Positions 3,752 to 43,704 of a stretch of 64,000 nt of DNA are shown here, in pieces. Source of the stretch: an uncultured delta proteobacterium. Lineage in GTDB: Bacteria; Desulfobacterota; Binatia; JACPRU01. The stretch lies in the NCBI GenBank assembly GCA_963745025.1, contig CAVUWD010000014.1, positions 128,001-192,000 of the forward strand, given 5' to 3'. A program made the position numbers and the translations under genes. A model generated the notes under the pieces. It worked only from the letters and a program-made list of their open reading frames with translations, did no database searches and was not told where the DNA came from. Each line of letters opens with the position of its first letter. Within the stretch, counting starts at the first letter, position 1.

Positions 3752-4213
3752 GCTTTTCGCGAAGCCAGGAAGGGGCCTGCGGAGAATCGGCCAGAAGTAC
3801 GCGTGCGCGTCCTCCAAATGCGTCGGCCAATCGACGAGGAGTGTAGCAACAAGCTCGCCGTGAAGAACTCGCCCGTACGGTTTCTTCGCCATAGGAACCA
3901 CGCGCCGAGCAGGAGAAAGATCGGGATCGAGTGAAACGCATCGAATACCGTTTGCCAGCGGGGCTCGAAGTAGAGGGTTCCGAAGATCCGCTCCATCGGC
4001 TCGCGTCGGACCGCGGCTTCGAACAGGAAGAATGCGAGTATCGGTAGGTCGGGCACTACGGCCCCCAGCAGGATCCAGCCGCGGGGAGCCCCGCGCACGA
4101 TTCCGAGGGCTAGCTCGGTAAGATGTGTGTATCCCCTTTGATGGCGCCCAACGGGCGCGATCCGTGAGGTACGCTCCTAGGACGTTGAGGGCGGCGTGAG
4201 TCGGGGTGTGCAC
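3750..4213 (-). pseudogene. Membrane metal-dependent hydrolase-like protein, disrupted
   Basis: Reconstructs as VHTPTHAALNVLALG...GAVVPDLP...FDAFHS...LLHSLVDWPTHLEDAHAYFWP across three frame segments; broken by the 4110-4180 insertion and a frameshift near 3838. Confidence 0.7.
4110..4180. mobile_element. 63-bp insertion flanked by CTAG direct repeats (MITE-like or IS scar)
   Basis: CTAG at 4110-4113 and 4177-4180; removing 67 bp restores the frame AAC GTC CTA GCC CTC GGA. Confidence 0.7.
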
Positions 4214-7537: not shown

Positions 7538-8860
7538 TCAACTCTGGAGGCGAGCACGTGCCGGGGTTGCCGCGGTCGTGCGGATCGAGCTGGTCGAGTT
7601 CTGAACCAGCGAGGGCTCGGTAAGCGGGACGTCAGCAGGAATCGGAAAGCGCAGCGTGAAGCGTGACCCCTTGCCGGGCTGAGACTGCAGGGTCACCGCG
7701 CCGCCGTGCGCTTCCGCGATCAGGCGCACGATGAAGAGCCCAAGACCGGTCCCCGCTTCTTCGCCTTCCGAGACGTAGGGCTCGAACAGTCGCTGCCGAA
7801 CCCCTACGGGGATTCCCGGACCGTTGTCGCTAACCGTCACCGTCACGGCGCTGCCGTCGATGCCCGTCGCGAGCTCGACCCGCCCGCCGACGGGCACGAA
7901 CTTGACCGCATTCCAGAGGAGATTGGCGATCGCACGCTGAAGATGACTCCGGTCTCCCGAAATCGCGGGCAGATGCTCGGCGAGCCGAGCTTCGAGGCGG
8001 ATTTCCTTTTCGGCCGCCGCTCGGCGCTGGTGGTGGAGCGCTTCCTTGGCGACTGCATTCAGGTCGACGAGCTGCCGTGGAGTGGCCCTCGCACCCGCCG
8101 CCGCGGACGCCATCGCGAGGAAAGTGGCGACCAACTCGGCGCTCTCCGTCGCCGCCTTCTTGATGGATTCGCAGAGGTTTCGCCGCGCGGCCTCTTCCAG
8201 CGTCTCGGGGTCGGCGAGCAGGAGATCGGCCATTGCCGCGATCGCCGAGAGCGGCGTCTGCAGGTCGTGCGTCAGCGTCGCCAGCAAGTCGGTGCGGAAC
8301 CGCTCGCGCGCGTGTGCAATCTCGGCTACGCGCCGCTCCTGTTTCGCGATCGTCACGAGGTAGCCGTAGAACGTGCCGATGCCGAAGAGAAACGGGAAGC
8401 GGAGCAGCACCGAAGGCGTCAAGATCTCCCGCAGCGGCTGGGTGCGGAGCAGGAAGAGCAAATACAGGAAGCCGATCAGCGCACAGCCACCGGCGATCAT
8501 CCCCACGCTCTCGCCGAGGGCCGCTAGAAACAACACGGAGAAGTAGAGCAGGAAGAGCTCGCCGCTGTGCTCGCCGGCGAGATACATGCCGAGGCTGATC
8601 CAGCACGTGTCGAAGAGCACGAACGTCGAGCGCAGCCACACGCTCTCGTAGGCCCGCCCCGGGAGCGCCGCGCCGACGAGGTTCGTCGCGAAGAAGATGG
8701 CGATGAACGCGAGAATCCGCGGATCGGTGCCCGCAAGGGGCCTGTCGAAAAGGACGAGGTAGGAGGCGGTGATGATCACCACCCAGCGTAAGAAGAGGAG
8801 CGTACGCTTCTTCGAGCGTAAGAATTCGGGGACGGTTGCGAACGATTCGGCGCGGCTCAC
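7538..8860 (-). CDS. Membrane sensor histidine kinase
   Basis: Multiple TM helices, H-box THDLQTPL, N-box NLLWNAVKF, DNGPGI, GTGLGL; GTG overlaps the upstream stop. Confidence 0.9.
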   Translation of the reverse strand: MSRAESFATVPEFLRSKKRTLLFLRWVVIITASYLVLFDRPLAGTDPRILAFIAIFFATNLVGAALPGRAYESVWLRSTFVLFDTCWISLGMYLAGEHSGELFLLYFSVLFLAALGESVGMIAGGCALIGFLYLLFLLRTQPLREILTPSVLLRFPFLFGIGTFYGYLVTIAKQERRVAEIAHARERFRTDLLATLTHDLQTPLSAIAAMADLLLADPETLEEAARRNLCESIKKAATESAELVATFLAMASAAAGARATPRQLVDLNAVAKEALHHQRRAAAEKEIRLEARLAEHLPAISGDRSHLQRAIANLLWNAVKFVPVGGRVELATGIDGSAVTVTVSDNGPGIPVGVRQRLFEPYVSEGEEAGTGLGLFIVRLIAEAHGGAVTLQSQPGKGSRFTLRFPIPADVPLTEPSLVQNSTSSIRTTAATPARARLQS

Positions 8861-9330
8861 GCCTGCGACTCCCTGGCCAGCTTGTTGTAGACGAGAGCCG
8901 CCTGCAGGCGGCTGGCGACGCCGAGCTTCTCGAAGTTGTGACTCAGGTGGCTCGTGACCGTCTTCTCCGAGATCGACAGCTGCGCGGCGATGTCGCGGTT
9001 GGAGAGCCCGTTGGCGACGAGCTTGATGACCTCCATCTCTCGCTGGGAAAGAGCCCGCAGAGGATCCGGCGCACCGTCCCCTTCCCGCCCGCGAACCGGA
9101 TGAATTCTCGATGCGACGTGACCGAGAGCATGGGTCCGCCCAGACTTCGCCGCGAGCCACGTGCTGAATGGCTTCGAGGAGCGGCTCCAGAGGCCCGCTC
9201 TTGAGCACGAACCCCTTGGCTCCCATGCGCGCAACCAGCGCTACGCTGTCAGGGTCGGCAAAGCCCGTCAGGATGATGAGCCGGGTCTTCGGCGACGCAG
9301 CGCGGATCCAACGACGCGTGACCGAATTGG
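8857..9330 (-). pseudogene. NarL/LuxR response regulator, N-terminally truncated and frameshifted
   Basis: Second half of a receiver domain (RLIILTGF...GAKGFVLKS) plus LuxR HTH (LSQREMEVIKL...SEKTVTSH); no start codon or phospho-Asp segment; two frame changes at about 9070-9135. Confidence 0.75.
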
Positions 9331-9370
9331 ATGTCAGAAGCCGGGAAAGGTTCGGCCGACGGTCCGAGCG

Positions 9371-9395
9371 AAAAAGCGATCCGGTCCCTTTTTCA
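9371..9395 (-). repeat. Short A/T-flanked palindromic REP-like element
   Basis: AAAAAGGGACCGGATCGCTTTTT; similar to AAAAGGGACCCGGTCGGTTTTTT at 57043. Confidence 0.5.
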
Positions 9396-10070
9396 GCCAC
9401 CGTAGTCGCGGCTGACGATCTTCCCCGGCTCTTTGGCGTCGCGCACCAGCGCCAACGCGTCACCGAGGATCCGCTTCTGGAGGGCCGGGTCGTTCGGCCT
9501 CCCCAGCGAGTGACCGGGAACGAACGGCCGCGGGTGGAGCGCGCGCGGCGGATTGGCCTGCGCGCTCTGCTCGGGATCGACGGTGATCAGTACCGTCGCG
9601 ATTCCTCGAAGCTCGATCAGCCGCTGCACCGTCACGACCGTGCGGTGGCAGAGGCCTCAACCGCCGGTCAGGACGACGATGTCGGGTCGAGCCGCCTCGA
9701 TCTCTTTCAAGAGCTTCGGAAACGTGTCGTCACGAAGCTCGCGAAGCTTCATCGAGAAGCCGTAGGAGAAGTGCTTCGCGGTCGGCCCCTTGATCGTGCC
9801 GTCGGCCTTCATCTCGGCGAGCCGATCGATCGGGAAGATGCAGTTGATGTCCCGATCGGCGCAGGCATGATCGTAGTGACTGTCATCGTAGGCGAGGTCG
9901 GAGCCCGCGCCCTCGATCACACGGAACGTGCTGTCGCCATCGGTATTGAACGGCGGATCCGTCTTCTTGCGAACGCCCGCCGAGGAGACGATGCACACGG
10001 TCGAGTCGCCAAGGCTCCCCTTGAAGGGCGTCCAGGGAATGCAGTGTCGCGAGAGCTCGGGCTGATCCAT
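9393..10070 (-). CDS. PrdB/GrdB-like reductase selenoprotein (Sec at TGA 9657-9659)
   Basis: ORFs 9657-10070 and 9393-9635 are in frame; read-through gives VLTGG-U-GLCHRTV, matching the PrdB-type GUxxCHR motif; also SSAGV, HYDH, DINCIFP. Confidence 0.9.
9627..9647 (-). promoter_or_regulatory. Putative bacterial SECIS hairpin
   Basis: CACCGCAC-GGTC-GTG(A)CGGTG; G-starting loop 17 nt after UGA. Confidence 0.7.
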
Positions 10071-10073
10071 CGG

Positions 10074-10105
10074 GAAAAGGGGACGACCCGCCGCGGGTCG
10101 CCCCC
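10074..10105 (-). terminator. Intrinsic terminator-like hairpin after the peroxiredoxin gene
   Basis: GGGGGCGACCCG-CGG-CGGGTCGTCCCC followed by TTTT on the minus strand. Confidence 0.6.
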
Positions 10106-10114
10106 ATCAATCGA

Positions 10115-10612
10115 TTATTTCAACTTCTTCAACGCCTCGAAGATCTTGTCAGTCGGCGGCTGCTTGGTGATGTCGTGAATGTTGATGTAGGCGATCTTCC
10201 CCTGCTTATCGACGACGAAGATCGCTCGCTCGGAGATTCCCGCGTCGCGCAGCGAGTTGTACTTGAGCGAGACCATGCCGTGCGGGAAGAAGTCCGAGAG
10301 CAGTGGGTACGAAAGGCCGCCCATACTCTTCGCCCACGCCTCGTTGCAGGGAACGTTGTCCACGGAAATGCCCAGGACCTGGGCATCGAGCCGCTCGAAC
10401 TCGGAGAGATCCTCCTCGTACGAGGGCATCTGGACCGTTCAGACCGGTGTCCAGGCAGCGGGGAAGAATGCGAGCACCACGTTCTTCTTGCCGCGATAGC
10501 TCGAGAGCGTGATCGCCGTCCCCTTTTGCCCTTTGCCGGCAGTCTGCCCGGTTGCCGGCAGAGTGAAGTCGGGAGCTTCGTCGCCGACTTCGAGTCGATA
10601 GACCGCTTTCAA
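10115..10612 (-). CDS. Selenocysteine peroxiredoxin (AhpC/TSA, AhpE-like; Sec at TGA 10439-10441)
   Basis: ORFs 10439-10663 and 10115-10429 are in frame; [14 protein letters not shown] places TGA at the peroxidatic Cys of PxxxTxxC; GGAGGT RBS before TTG 10612. Confidence 0.92.
10414..10425 (-). promoter_or_regulatory. Putative bacterial SECIS upper stem-loop
   Basis: CCTC-GTAC-GAGG; G-starting loop 17 nt after UGA. Confidence 0.6.
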
Positions 10613-10673
10613 TGTCCACCTCCTCTGTTCGTGTCGTTCCCGGCTCCATGCCGGTGAACGCAATTCGAATTTT

Positions 10674-10701
10674 AGGATAGCACCTCATTCGAAAGCGGCA
10701 A
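10674..10701 (-). promoter_or_regulatory. Sigma70-like promoter for the peroxiredoxin gene
   Basis: TTGCCG-16 nt-TATCCT with extended -10 TG. Confidence 0.5.
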
Positions 10702-10729
10702 CCCGGCCGTTCGGGAGCGCTGCGCCGAC

Positions 10730-12605
10730 CTAGGCCGTCGAGGACGCCATGCGCGCGTGAGACTCGATCGTCTCGAGGAGCCGCGGTCCGATCTCCGCGA
10801 GCTTCTTCTCGCCGAGGCCGCGGATCCGCCGCAGATCCTCGAACGAGGTCGGCCTGAGGCGTGCCAGCTCGCGCAGCGTGGAATCGTGCAAGACCACGAA
10901 CGCCGGCACGCCGCGCGCGGCAGCGATCTCCCGCCGCAGCCCCCGTAGGCTCTCGAAGAGACCCGGATCGACGTCCCGCCACGACGCCTCCTCGAGACGC
11001 GTCTTCTCGGCCTTCCGCCGGCGTGGCTCGACGAGCTCGACCGTGCGACGCCCGCGCATCACCTCCCACGACGCCGCGTTCAGCCCGAGCACCGGCCGGT
11101 CGCCCGAGGTGCGCTCGAGGAAGCCGGCGTCGATGAGCTGGTAGATGACGTTCACCACGCTCCTCCGCGGCATGTCCCGAAGCAGACCGAACGTCGATAG
11201 GCGGTCGTGCCCCCACCGCCGGACTCGCTCGCTCGTCCCGCCCATCAGCACCTCGGCGACGTGCTCGATGCCGAAGCGCTCCTCGGTGCGCGCGACGCAG
11301 GAGAGGATCTTCTGCGCGAGCACGGTGGCGTCGGCCAGGCCCTCCACTTCCCCCAGGCAGACGTCGCAGGCGCCACACGACGCCTCCTCGTAAGGCTGGC
11401 CGAAGTACGCCGTGAGCGCGGCGTGGCGGCAGCGGAGCGCGTTCGCGAAGCGGCGCATGTCGTCGAGCAGGCGCTTGGCCGTCTCGATCACGGCGCCGCC
11501 GCCGTCGTCGGTCGTTCGCTCGAGCAGCGCTTGCCAGCGCAGCACGTCCGCCGCCGAGTAGAAGAGCACGCACTCGGCGGGCAGGCCGTCGCGGCCGGCG
11601 CGGCCCGTCTCCTGCTGGTAGTGCTCGATCGACTTCGGCATCGTGGCGTGGATGACGCAGCGGACGTCGCTGCGGTCGATGCCCATGCCGAAGGCGACGG
11701 TCGCCACGACGACGTCGATCTCTTCGGCGGCGAAGCGATCCTGCGTGCGCCGGCGCTCTGCGGCCTCCATGCCGGCGTGATAGTGCGCAGCGCGAACGCC
11801 ACTCCCCGCGAGATGCTCGGCCATGTCCTCGGCGTCGCGGCGGGAGAGGCAGTAGACGATCGCCGCTTCCCCCTCGTGGCGGCGCAGAACGTCACGCACC
11901 TGGCCACGGACGTCGACGCGCGGCACGACGCGATAGACGAGGTTCGGACGATCGAACCGACCGACGAGCATCCGCGGCTCGACGAGCCGCAGCTGCTCGA
12001 CGATGTCCTTGCGCACGCGCTCGCGTGGCCGTCGCGGTGTAGGCATGGAGGCTGGCGGCCGGGAAGAGCTCGCGAACCCCCGCGAGCTGACGGTACTCCG
12101 GCCGGAAGTCGTGCCCCCATTGGCTGATGCAGTGCGCCTCGTCGATCGCGAAGCTCGCGACGCCGAGTCGGGCGGCGAGCTCGAGGAATCGCGGCGTCAG
12201 CAGCCGCTCGGGGGCGACGAAGACGAGATGGTGGCGCCCGCCGGCGATCTCGCGCTCGGCGGCGCGGATCTCGCCGGCGTTCATGCCGCTGTGGATGGCC
12301 ACGGCCGGGAAGCCGCACGCCCGTAGCCCATCGACCTGGTCCTTCATCAGCGCGATCAGCGGCGAGACGACGACGTCGGTCCGGCGGGCGACCGCTGGGG
12401 GCACCTGGTAGCAGAGCGACTTGCCGCCGCCCGTCGGCATCACGACCAGCGAGTCGCGCCGCTCGAGGCCGGCGTAGATGGCCTCTTCCTGAAGCGGGCG
12501 AAGAGCCTCGAAGCCCCAATAGTGCTTCACGACGGCGAGCACGGCGTCGCGCGACCGCTGCGCAACGTCCCGGGCCACGCTCGCCGACGGCTCGCCGCTC
12601 TCCAC
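10730..12605 (-). CDS. recQ: ATP-dependent DNA helicase RecQ (frameshift near 12030, probably sequencing error)
   Basis: MPTGGGKSLCYQ, DEAHCISQWGHDFRP, ATVAFGMGID, QETGRAGRDG, Zn/RQC and HRDC domains. Confidence 0.93.
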
Positions 12606-12886
12606 GCCCGCATCATGACGGGACCGAAGCGGCGGCGCCAGCACGACCAGCTCCAGGTCGAGCCGAAGCCGACGCTTCTCGGCCCACATCACGATCTTCC
12701 GACTCCAATCCTAACGATCCACTCCCCCAGTGACCATGATCGTGACCACTCGGCCGGTCCCGAGAACGCGACAAGCCCATCGACGAGCAGCCGGTCGTTT
12801 GGCCGATCAACGCCGCAGATCAACGCCACGACCATCGAGCCGTCTTCCCGGCCATGCTAGTCTGCGCGGATCACGGAGGCTCGCCC

Positions 12887-42071: not shown

Positions 42072-43704
42072 CGTTTCTCTCCATCGCGGGGTAGTCGTAG
42101 GCTTCCTGAGTGACCACCGGAACACGGTCGAAGTTGTGTGTCGGTGGCGGCGACGGTGTCTGCCACTCGAGGCCGGTCGCGTTCCAGGGATTCGAGCTCG
42201 CCTTCGGCCCGTAGCGCATCGACCAGATCAGATAGACGATCGGCAGGAAGTAGCCAATGCCGAGGATGGACGCGCCCGCGGTCGACATCACGTTCAGCAC
42301 CTGAAACTCGGGTGGGTAGGCGTGATAGCGCCGCGGCATTCCCAGGTAGCCGAGGAGAAACTGCGGGAAGAAGGTCAGGTTGAAGCCGAGGAAGATGATC
42401 GCACACGCGATCTTCGCCCAGAATTCCGGGTAGAGCCGGCCGGTGATCTTCGGCCACCAGTAATGCAGGCCGCCGAGATAGGCCATGATCGCGCCGCCGA
42501 CCATGATGTAGTGGAAGTGCGCGATCACGAAGTAGGTATCGGTGAGGTGGACGTCGAGGCCGATGGCGGCGAGAAACAGCCCCGTCAGACCCCCGATCGT
42601 GAAGAGGCCGATGAACCCGAACACGTATAGCATCGGCGTCTGCCAGGAGATCCGGCCCTTGTAGAGCGTCGCGGTCCAGTTGAAGACCTTGATCGCCGAT
42701 GGGATCGCCACCAGGTACGAGAGCAGCGAGAAGAGGACGCCGGCATACACGGATTGGCCGCTGACGAAGAGGTGGTGGCCCCAGACGAGGAAGCCGATGA
42801 CGGCGATCCCGAGGCTCGAGAAGCAGATGAACTTGTAGCCGAAGATCTGCTTGCGCGAGAAGCAGGTGACGATCTCGCTGATGACTCCCATGCCGGGCAG
42901 GATCATGATGTAGACGGCGGGATGGGAGTAGAACCAAAAGAGGTGCTGGAAGAGGACCGGGTCGCCGCCCAGATTGGGGTCGAAGATGCCGATGTGGAGG
43001 CCCCGCTCGAGCAGCAACAGCACGAGCGTGATCGCCAGCACCGGCGTGGCGAGCATCTGAATCAGGCTCGTCGCGTAAATCGCCCAGACGAAGAGCGGCA
43101 GCCGGAACCAAGTGAGGCCCGGCGCGCGCATCTTGTGCGTGGTGACGATGAAGTTGAGCCCGGTGAGGATCGAAGAGAAGCCGACGATGAAACCGGCGAG
43201 CACCGTGGGGATCACCTGCGTCTGCGAGGACGAGGTGCTGTAGGGCGTGTAGAAGGTCCAGCCGGTGTCGACGCCGCCGGCGATGATCGCGTACGTGCCG
43301 AAGATCGCGCCGACGATGTAGACATACCAGCTGAGCAAGTTGATGCGCGGGAAGGCGAGGTCGCGCGCGCCGAGCATCAGCGGCAGCAGGAAGTTGCCGA
43401 GCACGGCGGGGATCGACGGAATCAGGAAGAAGAAGATCATGACCACGCCGTGCATGGTGAACAGCTTGTTGTAGGTGTCCGCCTGTACGAAGTCGCCCTT
43501 CGGGGTCAGCAGCTCGACGCGGAGCGCCGCCGCGAAGAGACCGCCGATCGAGAACATGATCGTGATCATCACCAGGTAGAGGATGGCGATGCGCTTGTGG
43601 TCGATCGTGAGCAACCACGACCGGATGCCGTAGTCGGCGTTCAGATAGTTGAACTCTTGGAGCGCCGAGCCCGGGTCTTCGGCCAACGCGTGCGAAGTCT
43701 TCAT
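42064..43704 (-). CDS. ctaD: Cytochrome c oxidase subunit I (A2 type)
   Basis: [35 protein letters not shown]. Confidence 0.97.

Follow-up and report, generated by a model that had tools for sequence, protein, structure and literature searches.

A 64,000-nt stretch of the genome of an uncultured delta proteobacterium (assembly GCA_963745025.1, contig CAVUWD010000014.1, positions 128,001 to 192,000; hereafter the window) carries on its minus strand two adjacent genes, each interrupted by an in-frame TGA, which encode a peroxiredoxin (Prx) and, directly downstream, a protein resembling the D-proline reductase selenoprotein PrdB. We have very little doubt that both genes are real selenoproteins belonging to a conserved pair, and this Prx/PrdB-like pair is conserved across at least five phyla. 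What the pair does is less certain: from gene linkage and sequence features we lean slightly toward a compact two-gene operon of cytoplasmic selenoproteins in which the PrdB-like partner would act as the reductant of the Prx.

Translation table 11 divides the region into four short minus-strand open reading frames (ORFs), at 10439..10663 (74 aa), 10115..10429 (104 aa), 9657..10070 (137 aa) and 9393..9635 (80 aa). Reading through TGA merges them into two genes of 165 and 225 codons, which reproduces, now with coordinates, what had been proposed from the letters of this DNA without database searches (the sequence-only reading). The first gene, encoding an AhpE-like Prx of the 1-Sec (selenocysteine) type, occupies 10115..10612 and comprises 165 codons followed by TAA; it begins at a TTG that agrees with homologues opening MK.VY.L, and inspection of the sequence places a ribosome-binding site, GAGGAGG (10619..10625), 6 nt 5′ of this start. 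According to the translation and the codon alignment, its UGA (10439..10441) specifies Sec58, the peroxidatic residue, at the end of PAAWTPVU (a PxxxTxxU motif) and before TVQ. The second gene, encoding a PrdB-family UxxC selenoprotein, occupies 9393..10070 and comprises 225 codons, with an ATG start and a TGA stop; its internal UGA (9657..9659) specifies Sec138 in VVLTGG-U-GLCHR. No signal peptide is evident in either translation. Between the two genes lies a GC-rich stem-loop on the same strand (10075..10105; arms 10079-10091 and 10093-10105, an inverted repeat with 92% complementarity), which is followed by UUUU, ends 4 nt before the ATG of the PrdB-like gene and belongs to a 91-nt stretch with a folding energy of -35.5 kcal/mol. 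Its role may be that of a partial terminator, or it may affect mRNA stability. A terminator scan of 9200-10850 did not call it, since it is followed by just 4 T, and the sole terminator-like site in that scan falls within recQ on the plus strand.

We conclude with high confidence, on comparative grounds, that both UGAs are decoded as Sec, because the Sec machinery of the host, the alternation of TGA with Cys codons, the covariation of the selenocysteine insertion sequence (SECIS) hairpins and independent assemblies all point to it. The host genome, a metagenome-assembled genome (MAG) of 5.65 Mb in 20 contigs (92.65% complete, 7.6% contamination), encodes the machinery on which the sequence-only reading depended: selA (571 bits), selB (397 bits) and selD (385 bits), found side by side on contig C20 (20417-25012, outside the window), as well as a tRNA-Sec (anticodon TCA). 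When species-representative genomes were scanned, at least 577 loci related to the PrdB-like gene emerged, the best 80 of which were examined throughout. The codon aligned with U138 is TGA in 70 of these 80 loci and TGC or TGT in the other 10, and at the 76 loci that also hold a Prx, U58 aligns with TGA in 64 cases and with TGC or TGT in 12; homologues thus carry Sec or Cys at the TGA, as anticipated for both genes. Among 72 adjacent pairs, 60 are TGA/TGA, 6 are Cys/Cys and 6 are mixed. In the homologue alignments, the coding sequence 3′ of both TGAs is conserved.

The protein record of the family and independent DNA assemblies agree with this conclusion. In a large protein collection, 69 of the 79 homologues of the PrdB-like protein are fragments of 136-175 aa that cover at most 61% of the query, and the seven aligned fragments among them all stop at the residue preceding the Sec position, which indicates that gene callers cut the PrdB-like family at the UGA and bears out the claim that standard annotation misses such genes. 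Contigs from three DNA runs of different studies span both TGA codons. None of the 40 differences listed for the independent contigs (33 further differences being unlisted) falls on 9657-9659 or 10439-10441, and the TGC, TGT or TGG codons that the sequence-only reading had envisaged as a counter-case do not figure there. One contig from an RNA library (10161-10548) spans the TGA of the Prx gene only and is compatible with its transcription, although it is no proof, as DNA can occur in such libraries. The host selD, for its part, carries one in-frame TGA, so that selenophosphate synthetase is itself a selenoprotein.

Both UGAs are followed by a hairpin whose base pairing is maintained by compensatory changes. 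For the PrdB-like gene, folding and covariation delimit a SECIS hairpin at 9628..9646 on the minus strand, with 7 pairs, one bulged A and a GGUC loop (9636-9639) that starts 17 nt after the UGA. Most lineages use a main register, a 7-bp stem formed by nt 17-23 and 28-34 from the U of UGA, and the window register is the same stem shifted by 3 nt. Across 71 sequences in the main register, 85.3% of cells are paired and five of the seven pairs have changed on both sides; pair 21-30, for example, occurs as G-C (17), U-A (14) and C-G (12), both positions being synonymous third positions of Thr codons. The covariation score of this register was reached by none of 500 shuffles, and controls with a slid register collapse. 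In the window register, 92.6% of cells are paired in 25 sequences and pairs 15-31 and 18-27 covary, the 25 sequences having been picked for their poor fit to the main register, which biases the pairing figure upward. For the Prx gene, the minimum free energy structure and covariation define a longer SECIS hairpin (10390..10427, minus strand) that comprises nt 15-52 from the U of UGA, with an apical loop GAUCU (10407-10411) starting 27 nt after the UGA. Over 65 sequences, 85.7% of its cells are paired, changes on both sides affect 9 of 13 pairs (67 cells), and again 0 of 500 shuffles reach the observed score. The Prx gene can also be folded into a smaller 4-bp hairpin (CCUC/GUAC/GAGG) with a loop that begins 17 nt past the UGA, and this structure was rejected: it shows no covariation, with a single cell changed on both sides, no better than shuffles. 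The G-starting loop 17 nt after the UGA, claimed for both genes, therefore stands for the PrdB-like gene, where it covaries, and falls for the Prx gene.

Judging from the same alignments, both hairpins decay where Cys replaces Sec. The Prx hairpin keeps a mean of 11.45 of 13 pairs in Sec genes (n = 64) vs. 6.0 of 13 in Cys genes (n = 12), and the PrdB-like hairpin keeps 6.81 of 7 pairs in Sec loci (n = 70) vs. 5.2 of 7 in Cys loci (n = 10), the test statistics of these comparisons being overstated by the phylogenetic clustering of the Sec and Cys groups. Single-sequence folding energies of the two hairpins are those of shuffled sequences (z of -0.87 and +0.07), so the support for SECIS function comes from the comparative data. 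Rfam models, scanned over 9300-10800 with E values up to 10, gave no SECIS family, and the best match, to an archaeal snoRNA model (E 0.61), is at chance level.

The pairing itself recurs with little variation. At 72 of the 80 loci the PrdB-like gene is immediately preceded, on its own strand, by the Prx gene, with 5-239 nt (median 45) between the aligned ends. The eight remaining loci comprise four with a Prx within ~1.2 kb in another arrangement, one cut by the end of its contig and three without a Prx within 4 kb. By their record titles, the 80 loci belong to Myxococcota (26), “delta proteobacteria” (6), Acidobacteriota/Terriglobia (14), Bacillota (14), Chloroflexota (11), Methylomirabilota (2), Planctomycetota (1), Proteobacteria (1) and unclassified bacteria (5). 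When flanking ORFs were clustered, with antisense shadows set aside, no third conserved gene emerged, the next cluster being present at 13 of 81 loci. The spacing of the genes differs between lineages: at Bacillota loci a short spacer holds an AAGGAGG site for the PrdB-like gene, at many Myxococcota loci the two genes nearly abut, and a strong GC hairpin separates them in the window and at several Acidobacteriota loci, many related loci having none. The conservation of the pair in other genomes, which the sequence-only reading had left to be examined, thus holds for 72 of 80 loci in at least five phyla and does not extend to the host’s own genus and family among the genomes searched.

The product of the first gene matches the Pfam family AhpC-TSA with 118 bits (cut-off 26), in agreement with its description as a 165-aa peroxiredoxin with U at the peroxidatic position, here U58 of PxxxTxxU. 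Its closest solved chain is Mycobacterium tuberculosis AhpE (Rv2238c; PDB 1xvw and 4x1u; E 8.6e-28 over residues 5-144). Within the active site, P51-A-A-W-T-P-V-U58, residues P51 and U58 are invariant in 33 sequences, as is R129, and the peroxidatic column is the sole invariant Cys/Sec column; at the position of Cys88 in the window protein the other sequences have S, T, A or C, which leaves no conserved resolving Cys. Its sequence marks the protein as an AhpE-like, 1-Cys-type AhpC/TSA peroxiredoxin with Sec as the peroxidatic residue, and an AhpE-like Prx without a conserved resolving Cys needs an external thiol or selenol for its oxidized form. M. tuberculosis AhpE likewise works with a single cysteine and relies on an external thiol for resolution; it differs from the window Prx in having Cys in place of Sec, and the window Prx has a UxxC gene directly downstream, whereas AhpE is reduced by mycoredoxin-1/mycothiol, not known to be encoded beside it. 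The PrxU equivalog was rejected (NF040737, 57.8 bits against a cut-off of 270). The Sec-Prx family typified by PrxU has the same AhpC/TSA-fold peroxidase with Sec at the peroxidatic position of PxxxTxxU; the window Prx differs from it in scoring below this cut-off, in being AhpE-like without a conserved second Cys and in being tied to a PrdB-like gene. A further Prx homologue of the host, 36-43% identical and situated outside the window (G000:C14:93431-93815), aligned in two frames and may be frameshifted. Elsewhere in the host phylum, two loci, L130 (G371:C227) and L136 (G332:C24), carry a Sec-Prx of the same subfamily without a PrdB-like neighbor; at L136 the Prx shares one TGA-read-through frame with an upstream ORF having a DsbA-like CxxC motif (GDFQCSFCARAHP), which could be a different cis-encoded reductant, and L130 has a long frame similar to that of L136.

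The product of the second gene has TIGR04483 (D-proline reductase PrdB) as its best NCBIfam match, with 148.8 bits against a cut-off of 300; this confirms at 9393..10070 the 225-aa PrdB-like protein with LTGG-U-GLCHR of the sequence-only reading, at a score below the family threshold. True PrdB proteins score 306-434 bits. PrdB, the D-proline reductase selenoprotein of Clostridium sticklandii and Clostridioides difficile, belongs to the same superfamily, has a similar length (~230-240 aa) and carries the Sec of its UxxC motif at the position aligned with that of U138-G-L-C141, where Sec is present in the window protein as well. GrdB (glycine/betaine/sarcosine reductase selenoprotein B, TIGR01918) was rejected as an assignment, with 31.9 bits against 65.45 and a match confined to residues 64-166, and no Pfam family matched at E up to 0.01. 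When 102 proteins were placed in a quick maximum-likelihood tree, the window gene and the 80 loci formed one clade of 81 leaves (Shimodaira–Hasegawa-like approximate likelihood ratio test, SH-aLRT, 97), from which four paralogues of the host, five paralogues from relatives and 12 true PrdB proteins are excluded, the last forming a clade of their own (SH-aLRT 100).

We also searched for PF09338, the PrdA/GrdE proprotein, which was not found in the host genome at its 92.65% completeness, nor in four further holders of the pair (Ammoniphilus, Neobacillus, a Terriglobia chromosome and Dictyobacter; 0 of 5 in total), two of these four being complete chromosomes by record title. Since this search matched no control genome, a positive control was built from genomes with true PrdB: TIGR04483 exceeded its cut-off in 18 of 301 sampled Bacillota genomes, and PF09338 was present in each of the five true-PrdB genomes searched, with one match ~0.4-0.6 kb from prdB on the same strand. 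The remark that no PrdA/GrdE partner accompanies the gene is upheld by this contrast of 0 of 5 with 5 of 5. True prdB, then, adjoins prdA, whereas the window protein falls in a separate clade and its host yielded no PrdA. Taken by its score, phylogeny and genomic setting, the PrdB-like protein is best classed as a member of the GrdB/PrdB superfamily in a distinct clade and as no subunit of D-proline reductase. The label “orphan” that it had received has to be dropped, as the catalogued selenoprotein family to which it belongs is large, with no fewer than 577 related loci in species-representative genomes, and the host itself has four paralogues. These four further PrdB-like genes (C12:17529-18188, C17:10400-11065, C16:1089540-1090094 and C12:101957-102616, all outside the window) have one in-frame TGA each and are 28-35% identical to the window’s; none lies beside a Prx homologue and, unlike the window gene, they have orthologues in the same genus and family.

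An AlphaFold2 model of the PrdB-like protein (predicted local distance difference test 92.3, predicted template modeling score 0.91) places U138 where strand 131-135 meets helix 139-154, a strand-to-helix junction being the usual place of a redox-active CxxC. Across 37 partner sequences, T135, G137, U138, C141, H142 and R143 are invariant. The PDB offered no guide to function: a sequence search returned glutaredoxin alone at chance level (E 0.75), and a Foldseek search with the model gave no match at E up to 0.001. Alignment of the model with VIA-align matched generic Rossmann-like, LacI-like and SDR folds (best Z 9.1) and no specific solved relative.

Considering these features together, the most economical reading would be that the partner is the resolving reductant of the Prx. 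As the Prx is AhpE-like and has no conserved resolving Cys, the UxxC protein is a plausible reductant for it on the grounds of gene linkage and chemistry, and the conserved pairing suggests an antioxidant role for the PrdB-like protein. In the mechanism that we propose, the Prx selenolate would reduce a hydroperoxide and become a selenenic acid, which Sec138 of the partner would attack to form a mixed Se-Se bond; Cys141 would then resolve this bond, so that the Prx is set free in reduced form and the partner retains an intramolecular Se-S bond, and the partner would in turn be reduced by an unlinked general system, such as thioredoxin/thioredoxin reductase. The arrangement would resemble the AhpC-AhpF and AhpC-AhpD operons, which likewise join a Prx to a dedicated CxxC-type recycling protein. 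It differs from them in that the partner’s fold is unrelated to AhpF and AhpD, that selenium would occupy both active sites, and that a flavin or NAD(P)H domain is not evident in the partner, which would thus need a further electron donor.

Several observations weigh against the partner as reductant. No electron source is encoded in the cluster. A scan of 9200-10850 gave no sigma-70-like site, so that the promoter placed upstream in the sequence-only reading drops out, and co-transcription of the two genes, between which a terminator-like hairpin lies, is presumed here. Fused Prx-PrdB proteins of 395-2000 aa were not found, which is weak evidence, and the linkage was scored on the 80 best loci out of at least 577. 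Moreover, the linkage is asymmetric. Among 301 sampled genomes of the host phylum, 71 have Prx homologues (E up to 1e-30, 42-58% identity), mostly Cys forms with a few Sec forms; the same 301 genomes gave no orthologue of the partner, the best match being 42% identical and always located elsewhere. Twelve of the unlinked Prx loci, when fetched, showed no PrdB-like similarity within 2.5 kb and no recurrent partner gene among the neighbors, and their Prxs nest inside the tree of the linked ones. The existence of unlinked close homologues means that a partner in cis is not obligatory for this Prx subfamily, and the partner clade appears to depend on the Prx far more than the Prx on its partner; AhpF, too, is tied to its Prx more tightly than the Prx to AhpF. 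Finally, the partner has invariant residues beyond the UxxC motif (Y66, D74, N76, H142, R143, R150, E153 and R176 in the 37 sequences), and its modeled fold, as aligned with VIA-align, is Rossmann-like alpha/beta and apparently not thioredoxin-like, features that, as far as the model goes, would fit a substrate-binding enzyme no less than a simple redoxin.

These last points are those of the strongest alternative, which we regard as unlikely and yet as a serious contender: the PrdB-like protein would be the catalytic selenoprotein of a PrdA-free substrate reductase performing Stickland-type C-N or C-X cleavage, and the Prx would serve the partner by protecting or reactivating its selenol in oxic cells, or by passing oxidizing or reducing equivalents to it. 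Homology to the substrate-specific subunits PrdB and GrdB, the many invariant residues outside UxxC and the modeled Rossmann-like alpha/beta fold, apparently in place of a thioredoxin fold, all agree with such an enzyme, as does a linkage in which the partner clade nearly always has a Prx and the Prx subfamily often has no partner; the four host paralogues away from any Prx further suggest that the family has functions of its own. What such a reductase lacks is a source of the substrate-activating group, as no PrdA/GrdE, GrdA-type carrier or other conserved neighbor that could supply it was found, and the unit conserved across at least five phyla consists of just the two genes.

A peroxide-sensing relay, in which the Sec-Prx is oxidized first and the UxxC protein takes over the oxidation and switches another process, bulk peroxide removal not being the purpose, seems to us improbable. 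Its first chemical steps would be identical to those of the reductant mechanism, a small module without a reductase would suit it, and the strong intergenic hairpin of the window and some other loci could set unequal expression; but the partner has no DNA-binding or signaling domain, no regulator is conserved beside the pair, and the adjacent response regulator is a truncated pseudogene left by rearrangement. Far less credible still is a genuine D-proline reductase PrdB whose PrdA lies elsewhere or in an unassembled part of the genome. TIGR04483 is indeed the best NCBIfam match, the host genome is just 92.65% complete and “proline reductase PrdB” is the catalogues’ name for such genes (PMC1088965, PMC2398784), but the score is half of the curated cut-off, the clade is separate, and PF09338, not found in any of the five holders searched, adjoins prdB in each of the five true-PrdB genomes. 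The probability that errors of sequencing or assembly produced the in-frame TGAs, or that these are pseudogenes, is next to negligible: a MAG with 7.6% contamination and frame breaks in the neighboring response regulator and RecQ genes would allow it, but in other assemblies 64 of 76 Prx and 70 of 80 PrdB-like genes have TGA at the corresponding codon, coding is conserved 3′ of the TGAs, the SECIS hairpins covary, the Sec machinery is present, and the independent contigs cover both codons without a listed difference there.

How the pair came to this genome can be seen in part from its relatives. In 40 related genomes, among them a same-genus genome (82% complete) and six same-family genomes (65-84% complete), we found only paralogues, with 31-41% identity. 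With a 12-kb DNA query, the same-genus genome matches at 86-96% up to window position 9306 and same-family genomes match at 73-86% on both sides of the pair, while the segment 9307-10750 has no match in any of the three close relatives compared, drawn from the same genus and family. This segment, the two-gene cassette (9307..10750), has a GC content of 60-62% vs. 65-73% in the flanks. The nearest homologous locus, L027, has a Prx ~90% identical and a partner 67% identical to those of the window and shares window 9401-10611 alone, at 72% identity, with no flank in common. The left border of the cassette falls inside a LuxR-type response-regulator gene, whose remnant (8860-9307, minus strand) is without residues 1-72, the N-terminus of the receiver domain, of the 225-aa same-genus protein, the rest aligning in three different frames. 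Because the 1.4-kb segment with the pair is missing from three close relatives and lies beside a truncated response-regulator gene, it was probably acquired horizontally; in this respect the two genes would behave as a small transferable cassette, and the two-gene operon appears to move between lineages. No convincing terminal repeats were seen at the borders, where the repeats are short and imperfect, such as a 20-nt inverted pair with 75% complementarity (9284-9303/10717-10736), and we draw nothing from them.

Both selenoprotein families have long been catalogued (since 2005), and their existence is not new. The “Prx, TxxU” family goes back to PrxU of Eubacterium acidaminophilum (Sohling et al. 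2001, cited in PMC13188914). A 2006 survey lists three Sec-Prxs and one “proline reductase” for Anaeromyxobacter dehalogenans (PMC1794560), and the selenoprotein genes counted in ocean metagenomes number 43 for Prx and 42 for PrdB in the Sargasso Sea (PMC1088965) and 253 and 235, respectively, in the Global Ocean Sampling (GOS) survey (PMC2398784). In these two reports “proline reductase PrdB” is among the most abundant selenoprotein families of oxic ocean samples, and the family is described by the function of the clostridial enzyme (PMC1088965, PMC2398784). The window gene would count in this catalogue family (Zhang, Gladyshev et al. 2005-2008; reviews 2022, 2026). The selenoprotein-operon section of a 2026 review names grdA-grdB, prdB-prdC, frhA-frhD-hdrA, Prx/SelW-like, Prx-like/AhpD-like, SAO and Tso, and within that section the Prx-PrdB pair is not named (PMC13188914); Tso, the “three selenoprotein operon,” comprises other proteins and was set aside as a match. 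We did not find the pairing of Prx with a PrdB-like protein in the literature searched, supplementary tables and subscription journals being outside that scope. What is apparently undescribed in that literature is thus the “PrdB” clade as the conserved operon partner of an AhpE-like Sec-Prx in at least five phyla, with PrdA not found in the holders searched, and the cassette of this host, which its three compared close relatives lack.

To our knowledge, the only known biochemistry of the PrdB family is that of clostridial Stickland fermentation. The link to a Prx operon therefore offers a concrete and testable function for one large branch of the family, and the pair is a candidate answer to the question of what reduces AhpE-type Prxs outside mycobacteria. 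We advance tentatively, and with somewhat less than even confidence, the broader proposal that the Prx-linked “PrdB” branch is a previously unrecognized class of Prx reductants and that, joined to an AhpE-like Sec-Prx, it forms a self-contained, horizontally mobile, all-selenium cassette for peroxide reduction in oxygen-exposed soil and sediment bacteria from many phyla. If true, this would give a function to part of a highly abundant “orphan” selenoprotein family of oxic environments and would contradict the view that aerobes avoid selenoproteins. By record title, the holders include soil Bacillales, Ktedonobacteria and Terriglobia, groups that are mostly aerobic. Among the cultured ones are Neobacillus, Ammoniphilus resinae DSM 24738, Evansella vedderi DSM 9768 and Calidifontibacillus oryziterrae ZYK, which makes the hypothesis directly testable. 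As gene callers routinely split both genes and misname the PrdB-like one, a dedicated model would also help annotation pipelines.

Oxygen use by the host, which the sequence-only reading had put forward, is supported by its heme-copper oxidase subunit I genes, which indicate that it can respire oxygen; one COX1 gene lies in the window at 42265-43593. A second COX1-like region, elsewhere on this contig and outside the window (G000:C14:214437-215723), is in several pieces, with two TGA and one TAG inside, and is probably a decayed oxidase gene. Next to the cassette, the histidine-kinase gene downstream of the response-regulator remnant (from ~7538) looks intact. On the other side, a RecQ-like helicase (10730-12692, minus strand) is split into overlapping ORFs in different frames, 11892..12692 for its N-terminal and 10730..12046 for its C-terminal part, the split being due to a frameshift or else to misassembly. 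The kinase and regulator genes of relatives have no recQ beside them, which indicates that the region has been rearranged. Farther from the cassette, at window ~4100-4190, lies a dispersed short repeat: ~60-80 nt recur, with 78-92% identity, at over 30 sites spread across many contigs in the genome of the same genus.

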